The notes under the pieces were generated by a model, which did not search any database, was not told the origin of the DNA, and saw nothing but the letters and a program-made list of their open reading frames with translations. A program made the translations under genes and the position numbers. This document shows, in pieces, positions 6,407 to 22,945 of a stretch of DNA of 51,841 nucleotides (positions within the stretch are counted from its first letter, which is position 1; every line of letters starts with the position of its first letter). The stretch is taken from assembly GCA_036845125.1 (NCBI GenBank), contig DAIUEO010000005.1, forward strand, positions 1 to 51,841, in the 5' to 3' direction. This DNA comes from Candidatus Eiseniibacteriota bacterium (GTDB lineage: Bacteria > Eisenbacteria > RBG-16-71-46).

Positions 6407-7360
6407 ATGCGAATCACGTCCGTGTTGTGCGTGTTGCTGGGACTGACCGTGCTCGGCTGCCAGAAGAAACCTGCGGAGCAATCGGGTTCGAAGACCGCCA
6501 CCGGCGCGCCCACTCTGGAAGAGCTGAAGAACACCGAGTACACCGGTTTCGAGGAGGTGTCACGCACCGTCCACCTGAGTGGAGGTGCCTGGGAGGGCGC
6601 GCCCTACGACTCGCGGAGCGAGGTTCGCCCGCACGTCATCTACGTGAAGGATATGAGGCTCGAGGGTGACCTCGACGGCAACGGCTCGCCCGAAGCGGTG
6701 GCGTTCCTGGCATTCGCGTCCGGCGGCTCCGGAGATCTCCTGCATATCGTCGTCCTCGACCGTCGACAGGGTGCCGTGATGCAGCGCGCGAACGCCATCG
6801 TGGGTGACCGCGTGCAGATTCGTGGCGCTCGAATCGAGGGAGCGAACATCGTCCTCGACCTGGTCGAAGCCGCCCCCGGCGATCCCGCCTGCTGCCCGGC
6901 CGAGTTGGTGACCCGCAGGTGGCAGCTCGAAGGCGACTCGCTGGTCGAGCGACCCTCCGGCATACCGCACACACGCCTGAGCCCGGAAGCGACGGATGGT
7001 GTCGACTGGAAGCTGAAGGAGTGGAATCTCGGTGAGCCGGCTCCCGAGGACCCCACGGTGACGCTCATCTATACCGCCGGGCGCTGGTCCGGGAATTCCG
7101 GATGCAATCGCTACGCCGCCTCGGTGTCGTCGGGAGAGAACCCGGGCGACGTCATCGTCGGCCCGTCGTTCGGAACACGCATGGCGTGCGAGCCCACAGC
7201 CGCCGCCATGGAGCGCCGCTTCCTCACCCAGCTCGGCGCGACGAAGCGGATCGGCTTCTACGCCGGCCGGCTCGCGCTGACCTACGCGATGGACGACAGC
7301 CTCGGCACCATGCTGTTCGAGCCGGCGCCCGCCGCCCCGGATACGACCGCAAGGCCGTGA
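6407..7360 (+). CDS. lipoprotein with a C-terminal META (HslJ-like) domain
   Basis: Lipobox MRITSVLCVLLGLTVLGC. META-like block: WKLKEWNLG...TLIYTAGRWSGNSGCNRYAASV...VGPSFGTRMACEP..AAMERRFLTQL...YAGRLALTY. Confidence 0.75.
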   Translation: MRITSVLCVLLGLTVLGCQKKPAEQSGSKTATGAPTLEELKNTEYTGFEEVSRTVHLSGGAWEGAPYDSRSEVRPHVIYVKDMRLEGDLDGNGSPEAVAFLAFASGGSGDLLHIVVLDRRQGAVMQRANAIVGDRVQIRGARIEGANIVLDLVEAAPGDPACCPAELVTRRWQLEGDSLVERPSGIPHTRLSPEATDGVDWKLKEWNLGEPAPEDPTVTLIYTAGRWSGNSGCNRYAASVSSGENPGDVIVGPSFGTRMACEPTAAAMERRFLTQLGATKRIGFYAGRLALTYAMDDSLGTMLFEPAPAAPDTTARP

Positions 7361-8877
7361 ACCCGAAGGTCGTCGAGGCGGCACGCGCCGCGTTTCCCGT
7401 CTCCACGAACGCGATCACGCTCGGGGCGGTGGTGCACGAGGGCGCGTGTCATCCCGAGCCGCTGATTTCCGCGCCGCTCGCGATGATGAACCGCCACGGC
7501 TTGATCGCCGGCGCCACCGGCACCGGCAAGACCCGCACGCTGCAGCTCCTCACCGAGCAGCTCTCCGCGCGCGGCGTTCCGGTGTTCATCTCGGACGTGA
7601 AGGGCGACCTCTCGGGAATCGGGTCGCCGGGGGAGATGGGCGATCGGGTGAAGCAGCGCGCGCAGGAGACCGGCTACGCGTGGAAGCCGTTCGCGGCGCC
7701 CGTCGAGTTCCTGAGCCTGAGCGGCAGGCGCGGCGCCCAGCTGCGCGCGACCGTGTCGTCGTTCGGCCCGCTGCTGCTGTCCAAGGTGCTCGGCCTCAAC
7801 GAGACCCAGACCAGCGTGCTCACGCTCGTGTTCAAGTACTGCGACGACCGCGGGCTCGCGCTGCTCGACTTCCCGGACCTGCGCGCAGTGTTGCAGTACC
7901 TGACCGGCGACGGCGCCGCGGAGCTCAAGGACTATGGCGGCATGTCGAAGCAGACCGTGGGCGTGCTGCTGCGCGAGATGGTGGAGCTCGAGCACCAGGG
8001 CGCCGAGGGTTTCTTCGGCGAGCCCCAGCTCGACCTCGCGGACCTCATGGTGGTCACATCCGAAGGCCGCGGGCTGGTGAGTGCGCTCGAGCTGTCCGAC
8101 GTCCAGGACAAGCCGGCGCTGTCGTCCACGTTCGTGATGTGGCTCCTCGCGCGGCTCTATGCCGAGCTGCCCGAGGTGGGGGATCTCGAGAAACCCAAGC
8201 TCGTGTTCTTCTTCGACGAGGCGCACCTGCTGTTCGACGGCGCCAGCAAGGAATTTCGCGCCGAAGTCGAGAAGATCGTGCGCCTCATTCGTTCCAAGGG
8301 TATTGGCGTGTTCTTCGTGACCCAGAACCCCAAGGACATTCCCGACGAGATCCTCGGCCAGCTCGGGCACCGGGTTCAGCACGCGCTCCGTGCCTTCACG
8401 CCCGATGACGACAAGGCCCTGCGCGCGGCGGCGCGCACGTACCCGAAGACCGAGTTCTACGACGTGGCGGCCACCCTGACCTCGCTCGGGATCGGCGAGG
8501 CGTTCGTCACCGTGCTCACCGAGCGCGGCACGCCCACGCCGCCCTTCGCGACGCGGATCGTGCCGCCGGCCTCGCGCATGGCGCCCATGGAGGAGACCGA
8601 GTTCGCGGCGCGCCTCGCGGCATCGGCGCAGGTTCGGGAGTACGCCACACCGCTCGATCGGGTGAGTGCGCGCGAGATCCTCGCCGGGCGCGAGCCGGCG
8701 GCAGTCGGCCCGGCCGGAGCGCCTGCGACCGCGCCCGCCGCGCCGAGGAGAGGTGCTCAGGAGCCGCCCAGCACCTTCGAGCAGATTCTGAAGTCGCCCA
8801 TGGCAAACACCATCATGCGCGGAGTTATGGGCGCCCTGCTCGGCACCGCCGTGCGCCGGCGCCGCCGCTACTTCTGA
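7357..8877 (+). CDS. HerA-like / DUF853 (YjgR-family) P-loop NTPase
   Basis: ORF 7102..8877. Walker A is GLIAGATGTGKTRTLQ and Walker B-like is KLVFFFDEAHLLF. I prefer GTG 7357, which overlaps the META gene stop (GTGA) and gives about 506 aa, the usual size for this family. The 7102 start would overlap the META gene by 259 nt. Confidence 0.8.
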   Translation: MNPKVVEAARAAFPVSTNAITLGAVVHEGACHPEPLISAPLAMMNRHGLIAGATGTGKTRTLQLLTEQLSARGVPVFISDVKGDLSGIGSPGEMGDRVKQRAQETGYAWKPFAAPVEFLSLSGRRGAQLRATVSSFGPLLLSKVLGLNETQTSVLTLVFKYCDDRGLALLDFPDLRAVLQYLTGDGAAELKDYGGMSKQTVGVLLREMVELEHQGAEGFFGEPQLDLADLMVVTSEGRGLVSALELSDVQDKPALSSTFVMWLLARLYAELPEVGDLEKPKLVFFFDEAHLLFDGASKEFRAEVEKIVRLIRSKGIGVFFVTQNPKDIPDEILGQLGHRVQHALRAFTPDDDKALRAAARTYPKTEFYDVAATLTSLGIGEAFVTVLTERGTPTPPFATRIVPPASRMAPMEETEFAARLAASAQVREYATPLDRVSAREILAGREPAAVGPAGAPATAPAAPRRGAQEPPSTFEQILKSPMANTIMRGVMGALLGTAVRRRRRYF

Positions 8878-11036
8878 TGGCGCGCGACCCCCGGGGCGGT
8901 TCGAAGCCGGCCCGTCCCGGAGGCGCTTCCGCGGCCCGCCCCGCTCCGTGGGCCGGGCTCGAGGTGCCGCCGCTCGTGGTCTTCGCCCTGCTCGCGGTCG
9001 CGATCGTGCTGCTCCACGTTCCCGGGCTGCCGCGCACCTTCTTCGCGGACGACTTCCTGTTTCTCGACCAGGTGCGCTCGCGCACGCTGCTCGAGTCTCT
9101 GCGCGTGGCCGATCCGCTCAGCAACTTCTATCGCCCGGTGAGCCGCCAGATCTATTTCTGGATCATCTCCGCGACCACGAACGAATCGGGCTTCGCGTTC
9201 CACGCCTCGAACCTGTTCTTCTTCGTGGTGCTGGTCGGCCTCTTCTACCTGGTCGCGCGCCGTATGGCCGGCGGTGTCGCGGCCGCGATCGGCACCGCCT
9301 TCCTCGCGCTCCACTACGCCGGCGACGTTCCGGTGCGCTGGGCCTGCGGCAGCCAGGAGCTGCTCTCGGTGGGCGGCGCCCTCGCGGCGCTGTGGCTCCA
9401 TCTCGGCGGACGGCGCTTCCTCGCGGCGGCGTTCCTGGTGGTCGCTGCGCTCTCCAAGGAAATCGTGCTGCTCACGCCGCTGATCGCGGCCATCGCCGAC
9501 CGCCGCCCGGGGGAGAGCCTGTGGCATTCGGCGCGCCGCGCATGGCCGCTCGGAATCGGCGTCGCCGTTTGGGCGGCCGTGTGGCTGCTCGCGCCACACA
9601 CGCGACAGGCCGCCTCGACCGAGGTGGAGCTCCATCCGTGGGGCGCGGTTTCCACCTACGTTCACCTGCTCCAGGTGTTCTTCGGTTTCGAAGCGCGGCA
9701 GGGCGAGCTGTGGCGGCTCCCGCGGGTCGGGCCGCCGCTCGTGCCGCTGGTGCTGGCCGCGGTGGCCGTGTTCTTCGCGCGGGAGTCGCGACGCGCGCGG
9801 GACCCGAAGCCGGCTTCCCCGGCGAGCGACACGACGCACACCGCGGCCCGCGAGGCTCTGCCGTTCGGGCGCAGCGGCCAATCGCGTGCGCGGCACGCGA
9901 TCGTCACCGGCATCCTGTGGGCGCTGCTCGCCACGGTGCCAATCATCGCGGTCGCGGTGCTGTGGAGCGCCTACTACTACCTGTACGCGATGTGCGGCGC
10001 GGCGCTCGCGCTCGGCGCGGCGTTGAGCCGGGTTCCCCGCGGCTGGGCGGTGGCGGCGCTGGTCCCGCTCGCCTGGGGCTCGGCGAGCGCGCGGCACCTA
10101 GACGAGTTCACCTCCGCGCGGAACCCGTGGAGTGCGATGTCCCACATCAACCGCTTCTACATCGAGCGCGCGACCCGGGTCTGCGAGGGGTACCTCGCGG
10201 ACCTGCGCGCGCTGCACCCCGACTTCCCGCAACGCAGCACGCTGTTCTTCGCCGGGCTCAAGCCCAACGTGGCGTTCCAGGTGGCGGACGGGCCGCTCAT
10301 CCGCTGGGCCTATCGCGACAGCAGCCTGCGCTCCTACTACCTGACCAACTTCTCGCGCGACAAGGCGACCCGCGGCCCCAACTATTACTTCGTGAGCCAG
10401 AGCGACTCGATCTCCGAGATGGCGGAAGGATCCGACCGAATGCTGCGAATCGCGTTCAGCATGCTGGTGAGCGACTGGCCGCCCGGCGCGCATGACGCGC
10501 TGTCACTCGAGATCGAGCGTGACCCGTCGAGCGATCGCGCCCGCTACTGGTCGGCATGGACCAGCTACGCGCTCGATCGGCCGGACGAGGGGCGGCAATC
10601 GCTCGCCAGCGCCGGATACGGACTCGAGAGTGCGCCCGCATCCGGGCAGCGCGCGGCCTACGACGCGCTCGCCCGCGGGGACACGCTCGGCGCGATGGCG
10701 CTCGCGCGCGAGGAGGTGAAGCGCCACGCGCTCGACGCGGCAGCGCACGCGCTGCTCGCCGACCTCATGCTGATCCGCGACCCGGACGATCCCGACGCCG
10801 CCATCGAGGCCCTGGCCGCACGCGTGCTCGCGCCCCTGGACCCGATCGTGTGGCGGCGCTGGGCCATGGTGCAGGCGCGGCGCGATCGCTACCTCGAAGC
10901 ACTGAAGTCGTTCGATCGCTACTTCGAGCTGGCCGGCGCGATGGGGGAGAACGACGCCGAAGCGAAGCGCTGGGTGGAAGCGATGCGTCGCGTGCTGCCG
11001 GGCGGCGCCGCCAAGCCGGAAGCCTTGCGCGACTAG
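8877..11036 (+). CDS. polytopic GT-C-like membrane protein with a C-terminal TPR-like soluble domain
   Basis: 719 aa. TM1 is followed by an acidic loop (RTFFADDFLFLDQV), as in GT-C glycosyltransferases. It has at least 8 further TM helices and a helical TPR-like tail (ARYWSAWTSYALDRPDEGRQSL...LEALKSFDRYFELAG). The ATG overlaps the upstream stop by 1 nt (TGATG). Confidence 0.6.
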   Translation: MARDPRGGSKPARPGGASAARPAPWAGLEVPPLVVFALLAVAIVLLHVPGLPRTFFADDFLFLDQVRSRTLLESLRVADPLSNFYRPVSRQIYFWIISATTNESGFAFHASNLFFFVVLVGLFYLVARRMAGGVAAAIGTAFLALHYAGDVPVRWACGSQELLSVGGALAALWLHLGGRRFLAAAFLVVAALSKEIVLLTPLIAAIADRRPGESLWHSARRAWPLGIGVAVWAAVWLLAPHTRQAASTEVELHPWGAVSTYVHLLQVFFGFEARQGELWRLPRVGPPLVPLVLAAVAVFFARESRRARDPKPASPASDTTHTAAREALPFGRSGQSRARHAIVTGILWALLATVPIIAVAVLWSAYYYLYAMCGAALALGAALSRVPRGWAVAALVPLAWGSASARHLDEFTSARNPWSAMSHINRFYIERATRVCEGYLADLRALHPDFPQRSTLFFAGLKPNVAFQVADGPLIRWAYRDSSLRSYYLTNFSRDKATRGPNYYFVSQSDSISEMAEGSDRMLRIAFSMLVSDWPPGAHDALSLEIERDPSSDRARYWSAWTSYALDRPDEGRQSLASAGYGLESAPASGQRAAYDALARGDTLGAMALAREEVKRHALDAAAHALLADLMLIRDPDDPDAAIEALAARVLAPLDPIVWRRWAMVQARRDRYLEALKSFDRYFELAGAMGENDAEAKRWVEAMRRVLPGGAAKPEALRD

Positions 11037-11745: not shown

Positions 11746-13452
11746 TCAGTTTCTCGAGAAGAACGGTGCCGACGACAGTGCCGCCACGACCCAGGTCTCG
11801 AACCCCTCGGCGTAGAACCACTGCTCGTCGCGTGAGGTCGACACCCAGCGCGGCACCTGGACGAAGTCCCAGCTCCGGACCTGGGCGAGGCTCAGACGGT
11901 CGTATTGAACGACTCTGCCGGGGAGGAAATAGATGCCGTTGGGGTCGGACCGCGATTGCGACAGGTAGAGGTGGCTCGCGGTGACCCAGAACCCGAACAA
12001 TTGCTGATCAGAGGGCGCGGCGAGCTGACCCACGGGTGAGAAGGAAGCGGCATCGAGGATCTCGACGAAGTTGGACGGGGCCCCGTAGACGTGGCCCAAG
12101 TACAAACGCGCGCCGTCCGGACTCAACTGCAGGTCGGCAATCGACGGAGTGACGCCCCGCCGATCCACGATCGCGATCGCATCGGTCGACACGTCGATCC
12201 GGTAGAGTGAATCGGTCGTGGCCGCGTAGAGAGTATTGGCGTCCGGAGAAATGACGAACCGGGTGTTGTTGGAGAGAGGAAGTTGAAGCGCGCCGACGGT
12301 TCCCCCATCGCTGACATCGATCGCGACGAGTTCCGAATACGTGGCCAGATAGGCGCGATCGGGGCGACCCGCAACAAGCGCGTAGCCGACGGTCCCAGCG
12401 GTGCCGGCCATGTTGCGGCTCGTGGTCAGGGCTAGAGTCGAGGCCGAGTAGATCAGCAAGATGTTCTGCTGGAAGGCGGGCTCGTACGAGGTCGCGTAGA
12501 TCGAAGCGCCGTCCGAAGTCACATCGATTCCCGGGGCGCGAAGCGAGGTCCTCCGCAGCTCGGTCTGGCTCACGGAGGAGTAGGCCCGCAGGGTGTCGCG
12601 GAAGAGTACGTAGAACTCATCGAGGGTCGGGCTCGGAACCAACGGCGGGATCATGCCCGCGGAGGACGAGAGATCGGGCGTGAGACCGACGACGGCATCG
12701 CCCAGCAGCAGCCGGACCACGTTGCTGGCCGCCGCCACGGTTCGATTGCTCACGTGTACGCGGTAGTCCAGGCGCACGCCGATGACCGTTCCGGAGATCG
12801 AGGCATCCCGGTAGCTGGTCGAGTCCCGGTCGAAGACCTTGGGTCCCGGCGGAGCGTACTCGGGTGGGAGGAGGTTGCCTCCATAGTTGCCTTCGCGGGA
12901 GATGCAGTACGCGTAGAAGTTGCTGTCGGAGCTGGCCGTCCAGGTGAGCTGCGGAACTCCGCCATCCCACGTCACGGACGTGAGTGTCACCGGCGTCGGC
13001 AAACTCTGATCGAAGACGACGTCAACGAGGCGAACCACGGACGGGTAGCCCGCGATCCCGGCGAGCCCGATGTCGGGCTTCGTCTCGCGGGCCGCGATGG
13101 CCAGCGTGTGGGGACCCTCCGGCCAGGTCCGGGTGTCGACGGAAAGGACGTAGGGAGCGCTGGCGGTCTCCGATACGACGACGCTGTCCACGAACAACCC
13201 GAGAGCCGCCACCGGGCTCGAGAGCGTCGGGAGGTCGGCGGCGTCGATCTCGAGAGTAACGATCCCGGCGAGATGCTGGCCCGGACGGATCAGGGCGGGG
13301 TCGAGGCGGCCGACGTCGGGAGGCTGCGCCGCGTCGTTGTACAGGCGGTCATTCGGCTTGACGAGATCGCAGGAAGAGCAGGCACAGAGGAGCAACGCGG
13401 CCGCGAACCGCGCGGCGCGGGAGTACTCCCGACTCGGTTGTCCTGCGGCCAT
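11746..13452 (-). CDS. lipoprotein with Ig-like and YVTN/YncE-type beta-propeller repeats
   Basis: 568 aa with an N-terminal AAALLLCAC lipobox-like signal. Repeats include SPDANTLYAATTDSLYRIDVSTD, LSPDGARLYLGH and TSDGASIYAT. Confidence 0.55.
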   Translation of the reverse strand: MAAGQPSREYSRAARFAAALLLCACSSCDLVKPNDRLYNDAAQPPDVGRLDPALIRPGQHLAGIVTLEIDAADLPTLSSPVAALGLFVDSVVVSETASAPYVLSVDTRTWPEGPHTLAIAARETKPDIGLAGIAGYPSVVRLVDVVFDQSLPTPVTLTSVTWDGGVPQLTWTASSDSNFYAYCISREGNYGGNLLPPEYAPPGPKVFDRDSTSYRDASISGTVIGVRLDYRVHVSNRTVAAASNVVRLLLGDAVVGLTPDLSSSAGMIPPLVPSPTLDEFYVLFRDTLRAYSSVSQTELRRTSLRAPGIDVTSDGASIYATSYEPAFQQNILLIYSASTLALTTSRNMAGTAGTVGYALVAGRPDRAYLATYSELVAIDVSDGGTVGALQLPLSNNTRFVISPDANTLYAATTDSLYRIDVSTDAIAIVDRRGVTPSIADLQLSPDGARLYLGHVYGAPSNFVEILDAASFSPVGQLAAPSDQQLFGFWVTASHLYLSQSRSDPNGIYFLPGRVVQYDRLSLAQVRSWDFVQVPRWVSTSRDEQWFYAEGFETWVVAALSSAPFFSRN

Positions 13453-13613: not shown

Positions 13614-15800
13614 ATGCCGCCCGCGCCGCGCCCGTGGCTTCTCGCCTCAGCGTTGATGTTGCTTCCCGTTGTCTCCTTCGCGGCCGATTCCATTGATGAG
13701 GCCATTCGTGAGGCGCTGGGCACCGCGGATCGTCTGCCGCTCCGGACCGGCATCCTTCACGACCGCGTCCTCGACCTCACGGGACTCTCGCGCTTCGACG
13801 GCACGCCGTCCGCCCCGCGCGGGAACCTCGCGCTGTTCCGGCAGGCCGCCTACGAGCTGAGCCGCGCCTCGCGCGGCGCCCTGCGCCTCCCGGAGGCTCA
13901 AACCTTCGCGTCGCGGGCGGCGGGCAGCGCCGTGATCCCGATCCGCGTGCTCGACGTGGCGTACGAGCGCGTGCGTCCCGAAGCCGGCGCGGCGATCGGC
14001 CGGGGCGAGGTTCCGCCCGATGCACTCGAGGAGGCGCGCGCCTTCCTCGCCGCGCCGGCGATCGAGCACACCTATCGCGGCGCACGCACGTCGTTTGTGA
14101 TCGAGCCCGACGATGTGAGCGGCAACGATGCCCTGCCGGTGACGCGAATCGAGATCGATCCTGGTGACGGCGGCGGTTTCCGAAGCGCCGGTTTCGGCGA
14201 GCCGGTCGAGGCGCGTTACGGCGCGACCGGGGAAGTGATCGTTCGCGTCCGCGTCACGCGCGGTGGTGTCGCCCGCGAGGCGTCCTTCGCCTTCGACGTC
14301 CGTGCACTGGCCGCGCCACTTCCGGACGACACCCTGTTCGTCACCGCTTCCGAAGCATGGCTCGGCCAGTTCGGCACCGGCCGCGCGTACGTGCGCTACG
14401 GGCAGGGGCACACCAGCGTGGTGAACCCGGTGGTGGTCATCGAAGGCTTCGATCTCGACAACAGCATGAGCTGGGACGAGCTCTACGCGCTGCTCAACCA
14501 GGAAGGGCTCGCCGACACGATCCAGGCGCGCGGCTACGACGCGATCGTGCTCGACTTCGACGAAGCCACGAATCCCATCGAGGAAAACGGGTTGCTCACC
14601 GCCGAGCTGATCCGCCAGGTGCGCGCGATGCTCGCGCCCGGCGCGCGGATGTCGGTCGTGGGCGCCAGCATGGGCGGCCTCTGCTCGCGCTACGCACTCG
14701 CGCACCTCGAGCAGCTGGGCGAGCCGCTGCCGACCAAGACCTGGATCTCGTTCGACACGCCCCACCTCGGCGCCAACATCCCGCTCGGCATCCAGTACTG
14801 GATGCAGTTCTTCGCGTCGCAGTCGGCGGATGCCGCGTTCCTGCTCTCGCGGCTCGACACGCCCGCCGCGCGCGAGATGCTGGTCTACCACTACACGACA
14901 CCCGCGAGTTCATCGCCGAGCGCTGATCCGCAGCGCCCCGCGTTCCTCGCGAACCTGGCGGCCGCGGGCGACTGGCCCACGCGCATTCGAAGGGTGGCGG
15001 TCGCGAATGGGAGCGGCACCGGAACCGGCCAGGGCTTCGGACTCGGCGCGCAGATCATCCGCTGGGAGTACAACAACCTTCTCGTCACGATCCTCGGAAA
15101 CATCTGGGCGCTGCCGGACAACACTCCGACCACGACGATCTTCAACGGCCGCATCCGCATCCTGTTCGTTTCGGACACCCAGAAGTCAGTGCCCGTGAGC
15201 GGCACGCTTCCCTATGACGGCGCACCCGGCGGCCGGCGCGCCACCATGACCCAGATGGACACCACCGCTGCACCCTACGGCGACATCGTGGCACTCCATC
15301 CCGCGCACTGCTTCATTCCGACCCCCAGCGCGATCGCGCTCAGTACCGTAGGCCTCTCGACGCCCCTGATCGGCAACCCCTCGGTTCCGTCCGGCACTCC
15401 ATTCGCGGCCGTGTATCTCCCGACCGCCAACGAGGACCACGTCGCGATCACCCCCGGCAACGCGGCGTTCGTTCTGGGCGAAATCGAGCAGCCGGTGGTC
15501 GCGGCGCCGGACCCGATGCCGACTCCCGGTGTAGCCCTGCGGTCGTGGCCCCAGCCATCCCGCGGCGCGTCGACCATCGCGTTCTCGCTCCCCACCGAGG
15601 GCCGCGTGAAGCTGAGCGTCGTGGATGTCGCGGGACGAACCGTCCAGGTCCTGCAGGACGGCGTACTCACGGCAGGAGAGCACCGCGTTCCGTGGAGTGG
15701 AGTGGGGGAGTCCGGGCGCCAAATGGCGGCCGGGATCTACTTCATCACCCTCGAAACCGGCGCGTTCACGCAATCCGTGCGGGCCGCCGTCCTCAAGTGA
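13614..15800 (+). CDS. secreted alpha/beta-hydrolase (lipase/PGAP1-like) with a FlgD-Ig/T9SS-type C-terminal domain
   Basis: 728 aa with signal peptide MPPAPRPWLLASALMLLPVVSFA. The nucleophile elbow is VVGASMGGL. The C-terminal ~85 aa are ...STIAFSLPTEGRVKLSVVDVAGRTVQVL..GEHRVPWSG..ESGRQMAAGIYFITLETG....AAVLK. Confidence 0.7.
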   Translation: MPPAPRPWLLASALMLLPVVSFAADSIDEAIREALGTADRLPLRTGILHDRVLDLTGLSRFDGTPSAPRGNLALFRQAAYELSRASRGALRLPEAQTFASRAAGSAVIPIRVLDVAYERVRPEAGAAIGRGEVPPDALEEARAFLAAPAIEHTYRGARTSFVIEPDDVSGNDALPVTRIEIDPGDGGGFRSAGFGEPVEARYGATGEVIVRVRVTRGGVAREASFAFDVRALAAPLPDDTLFVTASEAWLGQFGTGRAYVRYGQGHTSVVNPVVVIEGFDLDNSMSWDELYALLNQEGLADTIQARGYDAIVLDFDEATNPIEENGLLTAELIRQVRAMLAPGARMSVVGASMGGLCSRYALAHLEQLGEPLPTKTWISFDTPHLGANIPLGIQYWMQFFASQSADAAFLLSRLDTPAAREMLVYHYTTPASSSPSADPQRPAFLANLAAAGDWPTRIRRVAVANGSGTGTGQGFGLGAQIIRWEYNNLLVTILGNIWALPDNTPTTTIFNGRIRILFVSDTQKSVPVSGTLPYDGAPGGRRATMTQMDTTAAPYGDIVALHPAHCFIPTPSAIALSTVGLSTPLIGNPSVPSGTPFAAVYLPTANEDHVAITPGNAAFVLGEIEQPVVAAPDPMPTPGVALRSWPQPSRGASTIAFSLPTEGRVKLSVVDVAGRTVQVLQDGVLTAGEHRVPWSGVGESGRQMAAGIYFITLETGAFTQSVRAAVLK

Positions 15801-15876: not shown

Positions 15877-15952
15877 GGGGCTGTAGCTCAGTTGGGAGAG
15901 CGCTTGACTGGCAGTCAAGAGGTCAACGGTTCGATCCCGTTCAGCTCCACCA
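15877..15952 (+). tRNA. tRNA-Ala (anticodon GGC), with CCA encoded
   Basis: Hand-folded cloverleaf: acceptor GGGGCTG/CAGCTCC, D arm GCTC-AGTTGGGA-GAGC, anticodon arm CTTGA-CTGGCAG-TCAAG, variable loop AGGTC, T arm AACGG-TTCGATC-CCGTT, discriminator A, then CCA. The G3:U70 pair, the alanine identity element, is present. Confidence 0.95.
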
Positions 15953-16062
15953 TTCTTCCTCACATGGCGGTCTCCAAGGCGGAAGCAGTCGGACGGGTGC
16001 AAGACGCCCCGCCGCCCAGCCGTCGCGTTCACCCACAACGCTCCTTCGATCGGAGCGGGTGA

Positions 16063-17949
16063 ATGTCCCGAAGCCCTGATCGAGGGCTTGTTCCTGGAGC
16101 ACCCCGATGGTTTGAGCTCCCCGCGCCCGGACGCAACGAACCGTGTCGATGCGAGAGCGGCAGGAAGATGAAGCACTGCTGCAGAAGCTTCTACGAGTTC
16201 GCACGGGAACCTGTAGTCAAGAACGCGGGCATGTTTGTGACTCATGAATTGCTTTGGCCCGGACTACGTTCCAACTACGACGTCATCGCGCAGCGTTGCC
16301 GCCTCTTGCCAGGTCCTTGGCTCATTCGGTTCCTGTCAATCCTGCAGTGGCTTTTGGAAGGAGAATTCTCGAGCAATCGCCCGGGGAACGTGGGCTTGAG
16401 CTTCCTCCGGAATTTCGCGGAGCCCATTGTGGCAAAGAAAGTGGAGGCCTGGCTATCAAGCGGTCGAGCACAACGGGTGTTTCATCGCTGCACAATCCCA
16501 GCAATGATGCAGGTACGGATGCTGGCGGGTGAGCAGGAAGGCAGCACAATGGAGCCATCCGCAGAGACCTTCGAAGAGGTTGCGAGACTCCTCTTGATGG
16601 TCAACGACCTGCTCGAAGGCGACTACGAGGAAGCGAAAGGCGCTAGCACAACATCGCAGGGCGTCGACCATGCTCTGGCAGCTTCGATGTTCCGCAATCA
16701 CTTCTATAGTCACCGTGCAAACTGGGGCCCAGCGATGGGGCGCCACTGGGGTCTGCTGACCTTTGGCGGAAGGGCAGTGCATGGCAAGTTCCCGAAGGAG
16801 GTTTTTGATGTGCAGAGGGAACACCAGGCCCTTCTTGGATTCGCCCCAACCGACATGCTCACGATCATGTTTGCCCTGGTGGCGTACTACTCGAGCTTCA
16901 CACCAGAGCAACTCAACGAGAGGCCAGACAGGTTTCTCGTGGGCGTTGATCTACTGAACGCGCTCGGTGGACCCGAAATGAGAGCACAAACTCAGGCGAT
17001 TTTCGCGGCATGTTCGGCGGACTGGGATGCGCATGTGGCGGCAATGCGAGCAATTGCTGTGGGCCCGCGAAAGAACGTGCAGCAGTTCTTCAGCGTCTAC
17101 AACACGCCGCTCATGCGCGAAGCGGAAGTCTATTTTCCCCTCGATTTTGAGTTCCTCCGGAGCCAGACGACCGAAGGATGGTTCTGGAGCCTTGTTCGAG
17201 TGCTGAGGCAGAATAATCGAGGCCCTGACATCGGCCGACTCAATGCTTCCTTTGGCAGAGCATTCGAATGGTTCTGCTCTGAATTGACTCGCCCGCTGCG
17301 CGACGGGGACGTCCGCGTGTGGTCCGACTGGGATGGAGAGATCCAGGCTCAGCAGGGGCAGCAGGTTCCGGACATACTCCTGGTGGATGGTTCCGTTCTG
17401 TTTGTGATTGAGGTCACTAGTAGCGCAGTGCCGCCATCGGCTGCTGTGAGCTGCGACCCGGCGGTCCTGGAGGGTGCGATTAGCAGAGCCTGGTTCGGAC
17501 CTTCTCGCAAGCTAGAACAGCTGCAGAATGCCCATGAAGGCGTGTTGGCCGAACGGGTGACCGCTGGTGGCCTGAACCTAGCAAACGTGAAGAGGGTGGT
17601 GCCGCTGCTGGTAACGCTAAGGTACTTGCCTCGACATCTCGGACTATGGCACTGGTACCGAGACATCATGCGCAAGAACGCTCTCAGGCCGGAGTTTATC
17701 GAGGCAGTACGAATCCTCGACAGCGAAGATTGGGAAGAGCTGTGTTTCGGAGCGATCGAAGGGCACGGAGTTGCAGCCCAATTCGATGCTTGGCAGGGGT
17801 CCGATTGGGCATGGCAGTCCTTCGAAGACTGGAGAGCCGCAACCCTCGGCAACCGCCCATTGCACCCACTACTTCGCAAGTTCTTGGACGATCTTTTCGA
17901 GAGGATGCCACCGCAGTTCGATCCGAAGCGGGCAGGTGCCTCCGTGTAG
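16063..17949 (+). CDS. SEC-C motif protein with a C-terminal PD-(D/E)xK-like (restriction-endonuclease-fold-like) core; otherwise unknown
   Basis: 628 aa. The N-terminal GRNEPCRCESGRKMKHCC (16129-16182) matches the SEC-C metal-binding motif. The C-terminal VPDILLVDGSVLFVIEVTS (17365-17421) looks like a PD...ExK nuclease core with Thr in the Lys position. G+C is low relative to the flanks. Confidence 0.6.
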   Translation: MSRSPDRGLVPGAPRWFELPAPGRNEPCRCESGRKMKHCCRSFYEFAREPVVKNAGMFVTHELLWPGLRSNYDVIAQRCRLLPGPWLIRFLSILQWLLEGEFSSNRPGNVGLSFLRNFAEPIVAKKVEAWLSSGRAQRVFHRCTIPAMMQVRMLAGEQEGSTMEPSAETFEEVARLLLMVNDLLEGDYEEAKGASTTSQGVDHALAASMFRNHFYSHRANWGPAMGRHWGLLTFGGRAVHGKFPKEVFDVQREHQALLGFAPTDMLTIMFALVAYYSSFTPEQLNERPDRFLVGVDLLNALGGPEMRAQTQAIFAACSADWDAHVAAMRAIAVGPRKNVQQFFSVYNTPLMREAEVYFPLDFEFLRSQTTEGWFWSLVRVLRQNNRGPDIGRLNASFGRAFEWFCSELTRPLRDGDVRVWSDWDGEIQAQQGQQVPDILLVDGSVLFVIEVTSSAVPPSAAVSCDPAVLEGAISRAWFGPSRKLEQLQNAHEGVLAERVTAGGLNLANVKRVVPLLVTLRYLPRHLGLWHWYRDIMRKNALRPEFIEAVRILDSEDWEELCFGAIEGHGVAAQFDAWQGSDWAWQSFEDWRAATLGNRPLHPLLRKFLDDLFERMPPQFDPKRAGASV

Positions 17950-17959
17950 CACGCTGCTA

Positions 17960-18150
17960 GCGACCGAAGTGACGGCCTCACCTCCAACGTGATCCGGCCG
18001 GTCTCATGTTCGAGCTAGCTAGACCTCACTTGATTCGTTCACAGGCTCGGGAGCGCTAGGGTGCAGCCTGAGGGGCAGCCGTGGCGACTCCCACCAGCGT
18101 CGCGGCTCTCCATCAGCACGACCACGTCCGCGATCTCGTCGGTGAGGACA
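17960..18150 (-). pseudogene. decayed 3' fragment of a paralogue of the FG-GAP/CTD gene at 20896-22656
   Basis: The reverse strand of 18095-18150 reads LTDEIADVVVLMESRD. This corresponds to LTDEIADVIILMENRD, the reverse strand of about 21205-21255, with about 44 of 50 nt identical by eye. Further shared blocks follow (GGAGTCG; CCCGAGCC-GTGA-CGAATC), with indels and in-frame stops. Homology stops abruptly at the HNH gene 3' end. Confidence 0.55.
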
Positions 18151-18184
18151 GAAGCACGAACAAGGCATGAAGGACGACGTACAG

Positions 18185-19099
18185 CTAATTAGGCGCTGTC
18201 ATTGTCCCCCCCGCTGAATCGCTCGGTTCGAGGATAGCGAACAGCTCGTTCGGTTCAGCGAGATGTTGCTGGTAGATCCATCTGGGGCCGGAGAGAGCGA
18301 TACGCTTAAAATGGACGCGGAAGCAGATTTGGCGGAACAGACGCACTTGCACCCTGGTGTGAGGGGCATTGTCCTCGAGTACTAGCCCGTGGATGGGTGT
18401 GACCGCGCCGGCCTGAAGGCGCTCAACGGCGGCGGCCGTATCTTCCCAGTTGCCTCCGCGAAGCATACGCCGGTAGGGTTCTAGAGCGTCCGAATAGATC
18501 GCACTTCCAATGCAGCACGCCAAGAACTCGTAGGCCGTCTTTAGCGCCCATGTATCAGGCGCGCCCAATCCGGTTTCAAGGGCGGGACGGATTCCCTCCG
18601 TATGCCACTCGATGATTTCGATTCCTGGTGCCAACTCGATCCGCTCGTTCGCCGGGGCTCCGTCGAACTTCTCTAGGGCTGCAGGAATCTCCAGGTCACG
18701 ACCTTGCTTCCGGAGCATCTGGACGATGGCGTCACGAGCTTCGGGGGTGGCCAGCATCAGGGAGCCGTCACCCGGCCGAAGGGGATGGGGCCGGAAAGCG
18801 CCTGCTTTGACCGATCCCTGGAACTCGCCGTATCCGGACTTGCCGACGTAGGCGGCCCCATCCTCGATAGTCTCGACGAGTTCCGGCAGCGTCTCCTTCA
18901 GTTGAAGGGCGGCTCTGCGAACATGTGGGTCGGACTTCACGCGGGAGTCGATCGTCGTTCCTAGGGTGCTATTGCAGGGCTTGCAGAGGAAGCTTGACCT
19001 GAGCCTTCCACCCACCAGAGCGGGAATGATGTGTTCTACCGTGAGTTCCCGTTCTTCAAGACACACGATGCACCGAGGATCTGTCCAAGGAACGACCAT
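18185..19099 (-). CDS. HNH endonuclease-domain protein with an uncharacterised ~240-aa C-terminal domain
   Basis: ORF 18185..19132. The ATG at 19099 is preceded by AGGAGG (complement of 19104-19109). The N-terminal HNH module is CIVCLEERELTVEHIIPALVGGRLRSSFLCKPCNSTLG (CxxC...EH...CxxCN). G+C is low. Confidence 0.75.
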   Translation of the reverse strand: MVVPWTDPRCIVCLEERELTVEHIIPALVGGRLRSSFLCKPCNSTLGTTIDSRVKSDPHVRRAALQLKETLPELVETIEDGAAYVGKSGYGEFQGSVKAGAFRPHPLRPGDGSLMLATPEARDAIVQMLRKQGRDLEIPAALEKFDGAPANERIELAPGIEIIEWHTEGIRPALETGLGAPDTWALKTAYEFLACCIGSAIYSDALEPYRRMLRGGNWEDTAAAVERLQAGAVTPIHGLVLEDNAPHTRVQVRLFRQICFRVHFKRIALSGPRWIYQQHLAEPNELFAILEPSDSAGGTMTAPN

Positions 19100-19233
19100 G
19101 CGACCTCCTAGCAAACCGAGGCAGGCTACCACGCATGAGGCTGCGGTGCAGACAGTTGCGGCGGATGCCGATGACTAGTCGTGGTGCAGGCGCCGCGGCT
19201 ACATGGCCGCCCCGGAGGCATTTTGGAGGGTTG

Positions 19234-19926
19234 ATGCTGATGAGAGTTGCGTTTGCTGGTGCGCTAATCCTGGTTCACGCGGTAGCGCAGGCTGGGTCAC
19301 TCTGCGTTCCGCCCACGGTCGAGAGGAACAGCCCTCACCAGTTTCTCGTCAGCATGGCGAATGCACTCGTCTACGCGAAGGAGGGTCTCGATCGCGTTAC
19401 GGAAGCGGACACCGACCTGTATTCGCTTGTCGTGGTGCTTCGACTCCAACAGTCGAGCTACAGGTGCGCCGCGAGCCAGGTAATGCCCTACGAGGCAAGT
19501 TCCGACTCGATCATCAGTGCAAGCGCCCAGGCCACTGCGGGAATCTTTGACCGCCTTTCACAAGTGGACGATGAGTTCGTGTCTCAGGCTAAGGTGCTCC
19601 TCGAACCGGACGGTTCGTTTTCAGCGGGAGAGATGGCAGAACGACAAGCGCAGACCCAAGCAGACCTTGAACAAACGTGGAAAGTTCTGATTCATGCAGT
19701 GGCCCTCGGCACGTTCGCTGTCGTGCGGGCCGATCCCATCACAGGCAAGATGGCGCGACTCTCGCTCACCGCAACGGAACGAGACGAAATCCTCGCAATC
19801 CTCCGATCAGGGTTCGGGCGAGGCGTTGCCGATGGGATACAGGCAGGTCAGCCTGCACTGCATGCTTCTGCGGCTGCCCTCTACCAGTTTCTCAGCAACC
19901 CGAAGTGGCAGTTACGATCGCGCTGA
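19234..19926 (+). CDS. hypothetical secreted helical protein
   Basis: ORF 19135..19926. The ATG at 19234 follows GGAGG and gives signal peptide MLMRVAFAGALILVHAVAQA. I recognise no family. Confidence 0.5.
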   Translation: MLMRVAFAGALILVHAVAQAGSLCVPPTVERNSPHQFLVSMANALVYAKEGLDRVTEADTDLYSLVVVLRLQQSSYRCAASQVMPYEASSDSIISASAQATAGIFDRLSQVDDEFVSQAKVLLEPDGSFSAGEMAERQAQTQADLEQTWKVLIHAVALGTFAVVRADPITGKMARLSLTATERDEILAILRSGFGRGVADGIQAGQPALHASAAALYQFLSNPKWQLRSR

Positions 19927-19954
19927 CCGAAGTCCTTGAGCGGGAGGGTGCGGA

Positions 19955-20257
19955 ATGGCGAACGGTGGGGCACTCGGCGATCGCCTTGTCGACATCGCCA
20001 TCTTCACACTGATGGGTGGGTTGGGTTTGGGGTGGGCCTTACTGCTCGGAACCATGGGTGTCCAAGCTCTGTTCCCGCAGTCAGCAGCTCGCGCTGAGCG
20101 CGTTCTTCAGGCCACGTCGAAATGGCTCAACCCCACTCTGAAGTACGCCCTATGGGTAGTTCTTGCTCTTGTCGCCGTTCGCTTCGTCGCGAGTTTGCTC
20201 GGATGGGCTCCTCCAGTGCCGCCGGGAGACCCGGGCGAGCTTGAGCGCGGGTCGTGA
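19955..20257 (+). CDS. small membrane protein with two predicted TM helices
   Basis: 100 aa. The hydrophobic segments are IAIFTLMGGLGLGWALLLGTMGV and YALWVVLALVAVRFVASLLGW. It starts 28 nt after the preceding gene. Confidence 0.45.
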   Translation: MANGGALGDRLVDIAIFTLMGGLGLGWALLLGTMGVQALFPQSAARAERVLQATSKWLNPTLKYALWVVLALVAVRFVASLLGWAPPVPPGDPGELERGS

Positions 20258-20310
20258 GCAGTTCGATCCCTTCAACGAGGTGTTCTGTCTCTGGCCTGTC
20301 CCGCCTCTAG

Positions 20311-20853
20311 GGAAAGGGGGGCATCCTGGCAAGGCAACGGCTGAAAGATCCACGCGACTTCCGTGATCGTGTTCAAGAGACGGTCCAATGGTTCAGCACG
20401 ATCTACCTTGGCGGGATACCGCCGATCATCACGAACGACTCCGCGTTTCTGGCGTTCATTTGCGTCGTCACTGCAACCGAGGCGCTCTCTGGCTACCGCT
20501 ACGGCGGTGGAAACCTAAACCACCGCTTCGTGAAGTTCGTACGGGAGTATTTCCCTGATGCATACACGCCTCATGCGGAAGACCTCTATGCTCTGCGCAA
20601 GAAGCTGGTGCACGCTTTTTCAACGGGACCGTTCCAGCTAATCCATCACAGGAGCGACATGCACCTGCGCGTGACGACTCGAGGTCAGGTGATCTTGAAT
20701 GCCGAGGACATGTACGGCGCTCTGCTGTCGGCCGCGCAGAAGTACTTCGCAGAGCTAAACGCCAACGATGATCTCAAGCGGAAACTTGTCGAACGCCTGG
20801 ACGCAGAAGGAGGTGGCAGCATCAGCGTCGGGCGAATTGCGGTAATCCGATGA
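20311..20853 (+). CDS. HEPN-like (Rx4H) hypothetical protein; the frame is open from 20311 but the first canonical start is GTG 20530, so it may be a pseudogene, frameshifted, or use a non-canonical start
   Basis: The track ORF is 20530..20853. The same frame is open back to the stop at 20308-20310 and reads protein-like sequence there (LKDPRDFRDRVQETVQWFSTIYLGGIPPIITNDSAFLAFICVVTATEALSGYRYGG...). The motif DLYALRKKLVHAF has R at 20596-20598 and H at 20611-20613. Confidence 0.45.
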   Translation, partial: GKGGILARQRLKDPRDFRDRVQETVQWFSTIYLGGIPPIITNDSAFLAFICVVTATEALSGYRYGGGNLNHRFVKFVREYFPDAYTPHAEDLYALRKKLVHAFSTGPFQLIHHRSDMHLRVTTRGQVILNAEDMYGALLSAAQKYFAELNANDDLKRKLVERLDAEGGGSISVGRIAVIR

Positions 20854-20895
20854 TCCGCAATCCCTGCGAGAGGGTGTCCCGCGCCGGCCCAATGA

Positions 20896-22656
20896 TCAGT
20901 GCAGCAGCACCATGCGATCGGATCGCGTGCGCCCGTCCGACGTGACCGTATAGAAGTACACGCCGGCGGGGAGGAGTCGACCGCTCCGGTCGCGACCGTC
21001 GAAGCGGTGTGAGTGCCATCCCGGTCCGAGACCCGTCTGGTCAACTCCGTTGACCTTCCGGCCCGACGCGTCGTAGACGGTGATGCGGACGTCTCCGGCT
21101 TGTGGGAGGCCGAAACGGATGAGCGTGCCCGATTCGCTCACGGGCTCGGGGGCGTTGGGGCGTAGCTCGAGGGCGGCGGGGACCGGTGTTTCGACTCCGG
21201 AAGTCGCGTCGCGGTTCTCCATCAGGATGATCACGTCGGCGATTTCGTCGGTGAGGACGAGGTCGAGATCGCGGTCGTTGTCGATGTCGAGCGGGATCGC
21301 GCACGAGGGGTTGGACGGGGCGATGATGTCCTGGTCGAACGTGAAGACGCCGGCGCCGTTGTTGGTGTAGATCCGCCAGAATCCGCCGCCGAAGGACGAC
21401 AGCACGATGTCGAGGTCGTGGTCGCCGTCGAGATCGCCGACATCCGCCGACGGGGTGTGCGCGCCGACCGCGACGGTCGTGACCGGACTGAAGGTGCCGG
21501 TGCCGGTATTGAGCAGCACGCCGCCGTTGAACCCGGTGCTGTTGGCGGTCACGGCATCGAGTCGGCCGTCGCCGTTCAGATCGCCGAGCGCCACGCCCCA
21601 CGGGAATCCGCCGGCCGATTGAGCGGGCCCCGCCGCTGTGAACGTGCCGTTCCCGTTGCCGAGCAGGGTCTGAACCTGGCCGCCGATGCCGCCGGTCACG
21701 AGGTCGGCGATGCCGTCGAGGTTCATGTCGCCGACCGCGAGGCCCCACTCGCCGCCGACGCCGCTGTTGAAGAAGCTCGGGGCACCGAACACCCCGCTGC
21801 CGTTGTTGATGAGCAGCGAGAGATTGTCGCTGCCCTGGTTCACGTTGACGATGTCCATGTCGGCGTCGCCGTCGACGTCGATCGGCACGATGCCGTGCGG
21901 CCAGGACCCCACCGGGATGTTCGTGATCGGGCCGAAGGTGCCGTCGCCGTTGCCCATCAGGATCCAGACATCGTCGGTGGAGGTGGCGCCGATGCAGAGG
22001 TCGCTGTTGCCGTCGTTGTCGAAGTCGGCGGGCTCGTTGGGGCTCGCTTCGTCGCCGATCGCCTGCGGGGTGAGCATGGTGCCGTAGTTGCCGGTTCCGT
22101 TCGCGAGGTTCAGGAACACCCGCACGTCGGCGCTCACCTCGTTCACGGTGGTGAGGTCGCAGTATCCATCGCCGTTGAGGTCGCCGGCCGAGGCTCCGTA
22201 GATCCGGGTCTGAACGTTGTCGATACGGTTCGAGATCACGTTCAGTTCGTCGAACTGGCGCGTCGCGGGCTGGGTCTCGGCCAGGAACTGGAAGAAGTAA
22301 CCGGCCGGCCTCAGGGGGATGTTGTCCGCGCCCCGTACGTCGTGCGACAGGTTGATGCTCACGATCTCGCCGGCCGAAAACGGCCGGTGCCGGACGAACG
22401 TCGCGGTCCGATTGCCGTTGCTGAACTCGAACGTCCCGGAGACGTTTCCGCTCCACCGCCCGAAGACCCGGAAGCTCGCCGGTGTGACGGAGGAAGTTAG
22501 CAGCGGCCGGTCGAACGTGACCGAGACGAGGCTCGAGACGCTCGCCATGCTATTGCGCGCCGGGCTGGTGCCGATGGCCGCGAGCTGTGCCATGGCGGGA
22601 CCGGCGAGGGCCGCGGTGGCGGCGGCGAGGAATCCGGCAATACGGGCGAGCGACAT
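20896..22656 (-). CDS. secreted FG-GAP/VCBS-repeat (integrin-alpha-like propeller) protein with an SbsA-Ig-like N-domain and a FlgD-Ig/T9SS-type CTD
   Basis: ORF 20896..22902. The ATG at 22656 follows GGGAGG and gives signal peptide MSLARIAGFLAAATAALAGPAMA. There are seven DxNGDGxxD-type repeats (DLNGDGYCDL, DFDNDGNSDL, DVDGDADMDI, DMNLDGIADL, DLNGDGRLDA, DLDGDHDLDI, DIDNDRDLDL). The CTD is ...IRFGLPQAGDVRITVYDASGRKV...GVYFYTVTSDG...MVLLH. Confidence 0.8.
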   Translation of the reverse strand: MSLARIAGFLAAATAALAGPAMAQLAAIGTSPARNSMASVSSLVSVTFDRPLLTSSVTPASFRVFGRWSGNVSGTFEFSNGNRTATFVRHRPFSAGEIVSINLSHDVRGADNIPLRPAGYFFQFLAETQPATRQFDELNVISNRIDNVQTRIYGASAGDLNGDGYCDLTTVNEVSADVRVFLNLANGTGNYGTMLTPQAIGDEASPNEPADFDNDGNSDLCIGATSTDDVWILMGNGDGTFGPITNIPVGSWPHGIVPIDVDGDADMDIVNVNQGSDNLSLLINNGSGVFGAPSFFNSGVGGEWGLAVGDMNLDGIADLVTGGIGGQVQTLLGNGNGTFTAAGPAQSAGGFPWGVALGDLNGDGRLDAVTANSTGFNGGVLLNTGTGTFSPVTTVAVGAHTPSADVGDLDGDHDLDIVLSSFGGGFWRIYTNNGAGVFTFDQDIIAPSNPSCAIPLDIDNDRDLDLVLTDEIADVIILMENRDATSGVETPVPAALELRPNAPEPVSESGTLIRFGLPQAGDVRITVYDASGRKVNGVDQTGLGPGWHSHRFDGRDRSGRLLPAGVYFYTVTSDGRTRSDRMVLLH

Positions 22657-22945
22657 TGAGCACCTCCCGAGGTTCGAGCTCCGGCGACCCCGCGGCCTGG
22701 TGTCCGCCCGCACGATGGCGACCGGCGTCGAGGCTAGGACGGGTTGGTCCGCAGGGCCAGTCGAAAAGTGGCCAGGTTCAGTTCCGCTGGCGATCTGTTC
22801 AGTATCGCCAGCAATTACCCGCTCCAGCGCGTTGGCGCCTCGACATTGGGCCAGTGTCGACAGGTTGATCCCACATCGTCGGGCCGCTAGGGTTTCGCGC
22901 ACGAACCCATTCTAGATTCCGATCCGCGCTCATAAGGAGAAATCG

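Follow-up and report, generated by a model that had tools for sequence, protein, structure and literature searches.

PD-(D/E)xK nucleases are already the commonest effectors of defence systems. The lysine of the E-x-K motif varies within this superfamily, and active enzymes without it, such as BamHI (E-x-E) and BglII (E-x-Q), are well known. Two described systems are particularly relevant to the protein considered here. Upx is a single-protein PD-(D/E)xK anti-phage nuclease for which activation by a phage protein has been proposed (PMC13099982, PMC13601566), and Rugutis is a lactococcal single-protein Abi-like system of 359 amino acids (aa) that begins with an N-terminal SEC-C motif and is reported to have thousands of homologues (PMC11381338, PMC13064643). 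We analysed a stretch of 51,841 nucleotides (nt) from Candidatus Eiseniibacteriota bacterium (contig DAIUEO010000005.1; the window, below) and, within it, a gene at 16063-17949 on the forward strand whose 628-aa product combines a predicted SEC-C motif, a long helical region and a predicted C-terminal PD-(D/E)xK core. A preliminary description of the gene, made from its letters alone, had proposed either a new sensor-nuclease or an inactivated nuclease used as a binding module. We consider it somewhat probable that the protein is a stand-alone, active, Mg-dependent PD-(D/E)xK nuclease of defence systems or mobile elements.

Fold of the C-terminal domain and its relation to described systems

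The full-length protein was modelled with AlphaFold2 from an alignment of 90 sequences, giving a predicted local distance difference test score (pLDDT) of 93.4 and a predicted template modelling score (pTM) of 0.93, and a model of residues 340-628 alone gave a pLDDT of 93.7. The C-terminal elements follow the order alpha-beta-beta-beta-alpha-beta, as in restriction-endonuclease-fold enzymes. The nuclease core, recognized from the AlphaFold2 and Foldseek results, the match to the Can2 profile, conservation and covariation, covers residues 386-530 (17218-17652; this and all other features of the gene lie on the forward strand). In the model it consists of a helix at residues 387-414, which carries E402 (17266-17268); strands at residues 417-421, 427-429, 438-442 (with D437 just before it) and 445-452 (with E450 and T452); helices at residues 466-478 and 483-495, the second of which holds K483 (17509-17511) and Q486 (17518-17520); and the fourth core strand at residues 511-518, with P514.

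Comparisons of structure and of sequence both led to the same superfamily. All of the high-probability Foldseek matches were PD-(D/E)xK enzymes, namely Nt.BspD6I (probability 0.99), the small subunit of R.BspD6I (0.98), Cdn1 (0.92), Upx (0.90) and LmuA (0.75), with the R2 endonuclease, HamA, PfoI, McrC, Hjc and Card1 lower in the lists. The family profile matched the nuclease domain of Can2 (7bdv) with expectation (E) values of 3e-4 and 1.6e-4 when two alignments were used, and this was the sole solved structure reached by sequence profile; the alignment pairs GxxFE(402)xYV, D437 and IE(450)xK of the two proteins. The core region of one relative, P0061, passed the Pfam threshold for NERD (PF08378; 25.9 versus 22.1 bits). 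NERD, DUF4143 and DUF234 were each matched by 2 of the 82 family members scanned with Pfam, and the 628-aa protein itself matched none of these three at an E value of 10 or less. Other relatives matched the PADLOC models 'Csx1 ARF+Nuclease' (three of them), PD_DExK and Cas4. By its fold, its acidic motif and these profile links, the 628-aa protein belongs to the PD-(D/E)xK superfamily.

The core assigned in the preliminary description is therefore borne out by the predicted fold, the Can2 profile match and the invariant acidic residues described below. The resemblance to Shedu (DUF4263) that it had also suggested was dropped, since the protein has no DUF4263 match in Pfam at an E value of 10 or less and no Shedu match in PADLOC, and the Foldseek probability to Shedu 8ti8 was 0.06; what likeness there is lies in Shedu also being a PD-(D/E)xK nuclease of defence whose N-terminal domains vary. 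The affinities that can be detected are instead to the nuclease domain of the Can2/Card1 type, to NERD and to the FokI-like catalytic domain of Nt.BspD6I.

Each of these affinities is confined to part of the protein. With Can2 and Card1 (7bdv, 6xl1), only the nuclease domain is shared, in which the GxxFExYV helix, the aspartate and the strand with I-E-x-K correspond position by position. However, the N-terminal 385 residues are unrelated to those enzymes, threonine stands where Can2 has lysine, no CARF family was found by Pfam in the 628-aa protein or its 82 relatives, and the family is not linked to CRISPR loci. NERD, DUF4143 and DUF234 are all much shorter than the family, which has conserved residues of its own in R227, P349, Q486, P514 and E558. 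The C-terminal domain resembles those of Nt.BspD6I and R.BspD6I (5lhc, 2ewf, 2p14) with Foldseek probabilities of 0.98-0.99, but E values are near 2e-3, identity is 12-14%, template modelling (TM) scores are 0.2-0.4, and the N-terminal regions are dissimilar (TM score about 0.15).

Upx (9wuf) was the top Foldseek match to the full-length model (E value of 4e-3, probability 0.90). Like the 628-aa protein, it is encoded by a single gene and places a large non-catalytic region before a C-terminal PD-(D/E)xK core. It differs in being about twice as long (a 1,212-residue chain in 9wuf), in having two nuclease domains, whereas the 628-aa protein has one, and in having canonical D/E-x-K residues and no SEC-C motif; TM scores were 0.22 and 0.14, and Upx was not among the PADLOC matches. 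The likeness to Rugutis lies in the N-terminal SEC-C motif, in the body after it, which is modelled with confidence and has no relative in the PDB, and in the carriage of a single gene on mobile DNA. The differences are that no nuclease domain has been reported for Rugutis and that its homologues are reported to number in the thousands, versus about 388 representatives found here. Its length of 359 aa, versus 628 aa, and the size of its family argue against membership (PMC11381338). By analogy, the closest counterparts in mode of action would be Upx and other PD-(D/E)xK nucleases that act in defence as one protein, and the SEC-C layout is like that of Rugutis; by the comparisons made here the protein is a member of neither.

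Conservation across the family

When 1.84 billion cluster representatives were searched exhaustively with HMMER and a two-sequence profile, 388 proteins were recovered at an E value of 1e-3 or less and 124 at 1e-10 or less. Most of the matches were 560-650 aa long and aligned end to end, and their clusters were tiny (one or two members) and either nameless or labelled 'hypothetical protein'. No Pfam, NCBIfam, PADLOC or PHROGs model covered the body of the protein when it and its relatives were scanned, and literature searches returned no description of the family. A word-indexed protein search found only the protein itself and P0002 (43% identity), with nothing more after a rerun with a 90-sequence profile. 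No relatives were found by pattern scans of genome, metagenome (twice) and viral contigs, and a tblastn search of the PLSDB plasmids with the 628-aa protein gave no matches. As judged from these sequence searches, the family is rare and previously unannotated and consists of stand-alone proteins of about 560-650 aa.

Conservation was measured in an alignment of 126 sequences, made up of the query and 125 relatives of at least 450 aa that share 15-45% identity. The nuclease motif, VPDILLVDGSVLFVIEVTS, occupies residues 435-453 (17365-17421) and includes D437 (17371-17373), E450 (17410-17412) and T452 (17416-17418), at the same positions as in the preliminary description, whose reading of a threonine at the canonical lysine position was thus correct. 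D437 was present in all 126 sequences and E450 in 125, as expected of the acidic residues if the assignment of the core is right. Residue 402 was glutamate in 97 sequences and glutamine in 24, and the other strongly conserved residues of the core were G398 (123 of 126), Y404 (115), Q486 (109) and P514 (122).

The canonical lysine position, residue 452, was threonine in 70 of the 126 sequences, lysine in 28 and serine in 17. A second lysine, Lys483, opens the next helix three residues ahead of Q486 and was found in 64 of the 70 sequences with Thr452. Lysine was present at position 452 only in 28 sequences, at position 483 only in 75 and at both in none, so that the two never co-occur. Position 483 was the sole column in the C-terminal region where lysine strongly divided the E-x-K group from the E-x-T/S group, in a comparison with some circularity, since Lys483 was the criterion by which the E-x-T/S group had been chosen. 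A neighbour-joining tree of the family separated four clades: that of the query, with E-x-T and G-K-x-x-Q; one with E-x-K and K-G; one with a local deletion and E-x-[K/S/T]-x-x-R455; and a basal clade of mixed states. The distribution of the two lysines suggests that the basic residue was relocated from position 452 to Lys483, which we treat as a good hypothesis rather than a demonstrated event.

The N-terminal segment was examined in the same way. Residues 23-40 (16129-16182), GRNEPCRCESGRKMKHCC, form a zinc-knuckle motif of the SEC-C type with predicted ligands C28, C30, C39 and C40, which fit the CxC...C(C/H) quartet in the context GRN(D/E)PCxCGSGxKxKxCC. In the 628-aa protein, Pfam PF02810 scored 13.1 bits (E value of 0.093), below the gathering cut-off of 20.4. 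NCBIfam models of the SWIM/SEC-C and YchJ (PRK) types matched the segment with E values of 3e-4 to 2e-2, matching peptides in the PDB came from the C-terminal part of YchJ (E value of 0.002) and the zinc-binding region of SecA (E value of 0.005), and the segment was also recognized by PADLOC models for E2 proteins with a SEC-C-type motif at their C-terminal end. The N-terminal motif matched PF02810 with E values as low as 3.9e-10 in relatives, with 18 of 82 members matching at 0.01 or less, and precomputed, unmarked PF02810 matches exist for P0005 and P0042. These profile and peptide matches, together with the PF02810 matches of the relatives, indicate that the predicted SEC-C motif is real and homologous rather than a chance resemblance. 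The four cysteines recur in the relatives that bear the motif, and the proposal of an N-terminal SEC-C motif in the preliminary description held up on both counts. In the AlphaFold2 model the motif is placed confidently against the body (pLDDT of 89-97).

By sequence pattern, the SEC-C motif is facultative in the family, and only part of the family, including the 628-aa protein, has the knuckle. Among the 150 best representatives, about 30 have the CxC...C(C/H) pattern in their first 60 residues. Its apparent absence is sometimes the result of a truncated gene call, as seen for P0004 by comparison with the fragment P0035, and is sometimes genuine, as for the E-x-K relative P0068, in which the open frame upstream holds no SEC-C motif.

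The public model of the gene is affected in the same manner. The open frame at 16063-17949, stop codon included, has 628 codons, and between the upstream stop and residue 36 its ATG at 16063 is the sole in-frame ATG, GTG or TTG; a Shine-Dalgarno-like GGAG (16052-16055), read from the sequence, lies 7 nt 5' of it. A scan for promoters and terminators around the gene found none. The public call, P0001, is 481 aa long and begins at nt 16504 (M148). This call is too short, because the relatives align from about residue 14 and share the N-terminal motif, and it leaves out 147 conserved residues with the SEC-C motif among them. The analysis of open reading frames (ORFs) and the point from which the relatives align both support the full gene at 16063-17949. 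Truncated calls seem to affect relatives as well, P0004 being one example when judged against P0035.

Between the SEC-C motif and the nuclease core, residues 46-385 or so (16198-17217) form an all-alpha region, as delimited by AlphaFold2 secondary structure and by conservation, which is interrupted by a beta-hairpin at residues 350-359. It contains R227 (16741-16743), conserved in 125 of 126 sequences, and P349 (17107-17109), conserved in all 126. Residues 46-385 gave no confident match in Pfam, among PDB sequences or with Foldseek, in agreement with the earlier statement that this region resembles nothing recognizable. An HEPN-like Rx4-6H motif at R227-H228 was considered and dropped, since H228 is mostly tyrosine in the relatives. 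After the core, residues 531-628 (17653-17946) make up a helical extension with a conserved acidic motif, D553-x-E-D-W-E558, in which E558 (17734-17736) is present in 123 of 126 sequences.

Genomic contexts and candidate functions

Six relatives had informative contexts, and all six sit in mobile or defence regions. The neighbours of P0002 are a D5 primase, AbiEi/AbiEii and an E2/ThiF/JAB/patatin group; those of P0005 are a serine recombinase and a CBASS-type operon with HORMA, AAA and Cap17-like genes; and those of P0016 are DUF1156, DUF499/HEPN_Swt1, an SDH protease, an AAA_11/12 helicase, Fic and RhuM. P0042 lies next to a resolvase and a phage integrase, P0061 next to a YafQ-type toxin and P0151 next to a ParB-methylase and a terminase. 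The idea of a conserved partner gene was dropped, since none was shared among the compared loci: a tblastn comparison of the window's four other islet proteins (described in the next section) with four related loci revealed no shared neighbour, and no neighbour family recurred in the Pfam content of the remaining contexts.

In the mechanism that we propose for an active enzyme, an all-alpha body, compact and some 340 residues long, with or without an N-terminal SEC-C knuckle, is fused to the C-terminal PD-(D/E)xK domain, and the whole would be a divalent-metal-dependent DNA nuclease, most likely active. E402, D437 and E450 would bind the metal, and the basic residue for which other members use the E-x-K lysine may come from Lys483, which opens the following helix close in sequence to Gln486. 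Because the family consists of lone genes carried on mobile elements and within defence islands, its most likely role would be in innate immunity, directed at phages or other mobile DNA. Restraint of the nuclease and recognition of the trigger or the substrate might fall to the helical body, together with the SEC-C motif where there is one. A more ambitious form of this proposal is tentative, and we regard it as possible but doubtful: the protein would be an undescribed single-gene anti-phage or anti-plasmid nuclease, in which the lysine has moved from strand 3 to the next helix, with the helical body and the optional SEC-C motif as a sensor that would release the nuclease upon recognition of a phage component, much as Upx and Rugutis respond to the terminase.

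Several observations weigh against an active defence nuclease. The evidence for a defence-island context comes from the six relatives and the gene in the window. Foldseek E values were marginal (1.7e-3 at best) and TM scores low (0.2-0.4), meaning that there is no close structure. The 628-aa protein has T452 in place of the E-x-K lysine. The lysine states are structured by clade, with about 8 parsimony changes at position 452 and about 5 at position 483, and the E-x-K clade often has a lysine one residue earlier (K482-G483), from which it follows that Lys483 may be an ordinary conserved residue and not a replacement; it is for these reasons that the relocation is kept as a hypothesis. None of the defence models in PADLOC extends over the body of the protein, and in the low-GC islet that holds the gene in the window neither an integrase nor a repeat of the tRNA 3' end, with up to 3 mismatches allowed, was found. 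The threonine at the lysine site, and threonine or serine there in 87 of 126 sequences, with Lys483 as a putative replacement, would fit a catalytically dead PD-(D/E)xK fold that binds nucleic acid or protein instead, as a regulator or adaptor might. However, the conservation of D437 and E450 described above, over very divergent relatives of 15-45% identity, would be unexpected once catalysis was lost. In addition, a fifth of the family (28 of 126) keeps E-x-K and the remainder have a near-invariant Lys483 or Arg455. We therefore disfavour the inactivated binding module that the preliminary description had offered as one of its two options, and judge a dead fold to be rather unlikely.

If the nuclease is active, it could instead serve the mobile element itself, through addiction, exclusion of competitors, homing or processing of the element's DNA. 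The recombinases, integrases, D5 primase, ParB-methylase and terminase next to relatives fit such a role, as does the tRNA gene next to the copy in the window. Conversely, no fixed linkage to one recombination or replication gene was seen among the compared loci, and defence genes, the CBASS-type and AbiE genes among them, prevail in several contexts. Defence genes commonly ride on mobile elements, so that context alone gives no clean split between immunity and a role in the element; we consider a role in the element unlikely, although somewhat less so than a dead fold. A solitary restriction-type endonuclease was also weighed, either modification-dependent and Type IV-like or of a Type IIS or nicking-like kind, in which the helical body would recognize DNA and the C-terminal domain would be a FokI-like cleavage module. 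Such an enzyme would explain why the C-terminal domain finds its best structural matches in the FokI-like catalytic domains of Nt.BspD6I and R.BspD6I, with full-length alignments to Nt.BspD6I that span about 590-720 columns, and the lack of an adjacent methyltransferase gene in the window would fit modification dependence. However, the global TM score to Nt.BspD6I (about 0.15) indicates that the recognition domains are unlike, and no winged helix-turn-helix, SRA, YTH or other known domain for reading DNA or its modifications was found by Pfam in the 628-aa protein and its 82 relatives; we consider this the most improbable of the explanations.

Should the protein prove to be an active nuclease of the defence kind, the list of known bacterial immune systems would gain a new single-protein member. 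Its family would also offer a natural series of active sites (E-x-K, E-x-T with Lys483, and E-x-S/T with Arg455) for the study of how PD-(D/E)xK enzymes are rewired, and it would be the second immune protein after Rugutis with an N-terminal SEC-C motif, which would open the function of the motif beyond SecA to experiment. The stakes are limited by the rarity of the family. A bench test is nonetheless worthwhile, given a compact family with good models and natural active-site variants.

The islet at the tRNA-Ala gene and its surroundings

The 628-aa gene starts 110 nt past a gene for tRNA-Ala(GGC), identified by ARAGORN at 15877-15952 on the forward strand, which marks the left edge of a low-GC (guanine-plus-cytosine) islet. 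The islet, of about 5 kb (15953-20895), was delimited by composition profile, ORFs and Pfam matches and lies between the tRNA gene and an FG-GAP gene. Its GC content is 57-62%, compared to 65-72% for the genome, and the fraction drops from 0.66-0.72 to 0.57-0.62 just past the tRNA gene. An empty site was sought by way of the flanking 728-aa gene, for which the sole relative, in L013 (43% identity), was without a tRNA gene and not syntenic.

Besides the 628-aa gene, the islet contains an HNH_5 gene and three small ORFs without matches. The HNH_5 endonuclease-domain gene (18185-19132, reverse strand; PF14279, E value of 2.4e-11) is convergent with the 628-aa gene and encodes a protein of about 304-314 aa, of which the C-terminal residues, about 250 in number, had no match. 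It is probably independent cargo of the islet, because no homologue was present near the four relatives checked by tblastn. The three small ORFs lie at 19135-20853 on the forward strand and encode 263 aa (190 aa in the public call), 100 aa and 107 aa; they had no match in Pfam, NCBIfam, PADLOC or PHROGs. About 120 nt (18030-18150) of the spacer that separates the 628-aa gene from the HNH_5 gene are 75-89% identical to the interior of the FG-GAP/FlgD_ig gene (21130-21258), the best part being 53 nt at 89%. From the sequence comparison, this stretch looks like a relic of a gene paralogous to the FG-GAP/FlgD_ig gene, and it gives a hint that insertion or recombination took place more than once as the islet was built up.

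The islet is flanked by genes for large secreted-type proteins. On the left, before the tRNA gene, is a DUF676 esterase-like protein (13614-15800, forward strand), and the right edge is formed by the FG-GAP repeat protein (20896-22902, reverse strand). Both end in sorting domains like FlgD_ig, Por_Secre_tail and CHU_C, which suggests that the DNA comes from a high-GC soil bacterium that has a type IX-like secretion system. An ORF further to the left (11746-13452, reverse strand) had no precomputed Pfam match and no PADLOC match. A HerA-like ATPase is encoded within 7102-11036 on the forward strand (PF05872 HerA_C, E value of 1.9e-176; PADLOC mad8 and HerA models, E values of 9e-17 to 3e-10). 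A 719-aa ORF that has no family match starts at 8877, where the HerA ORF ends, and the two may form a two-gene module.

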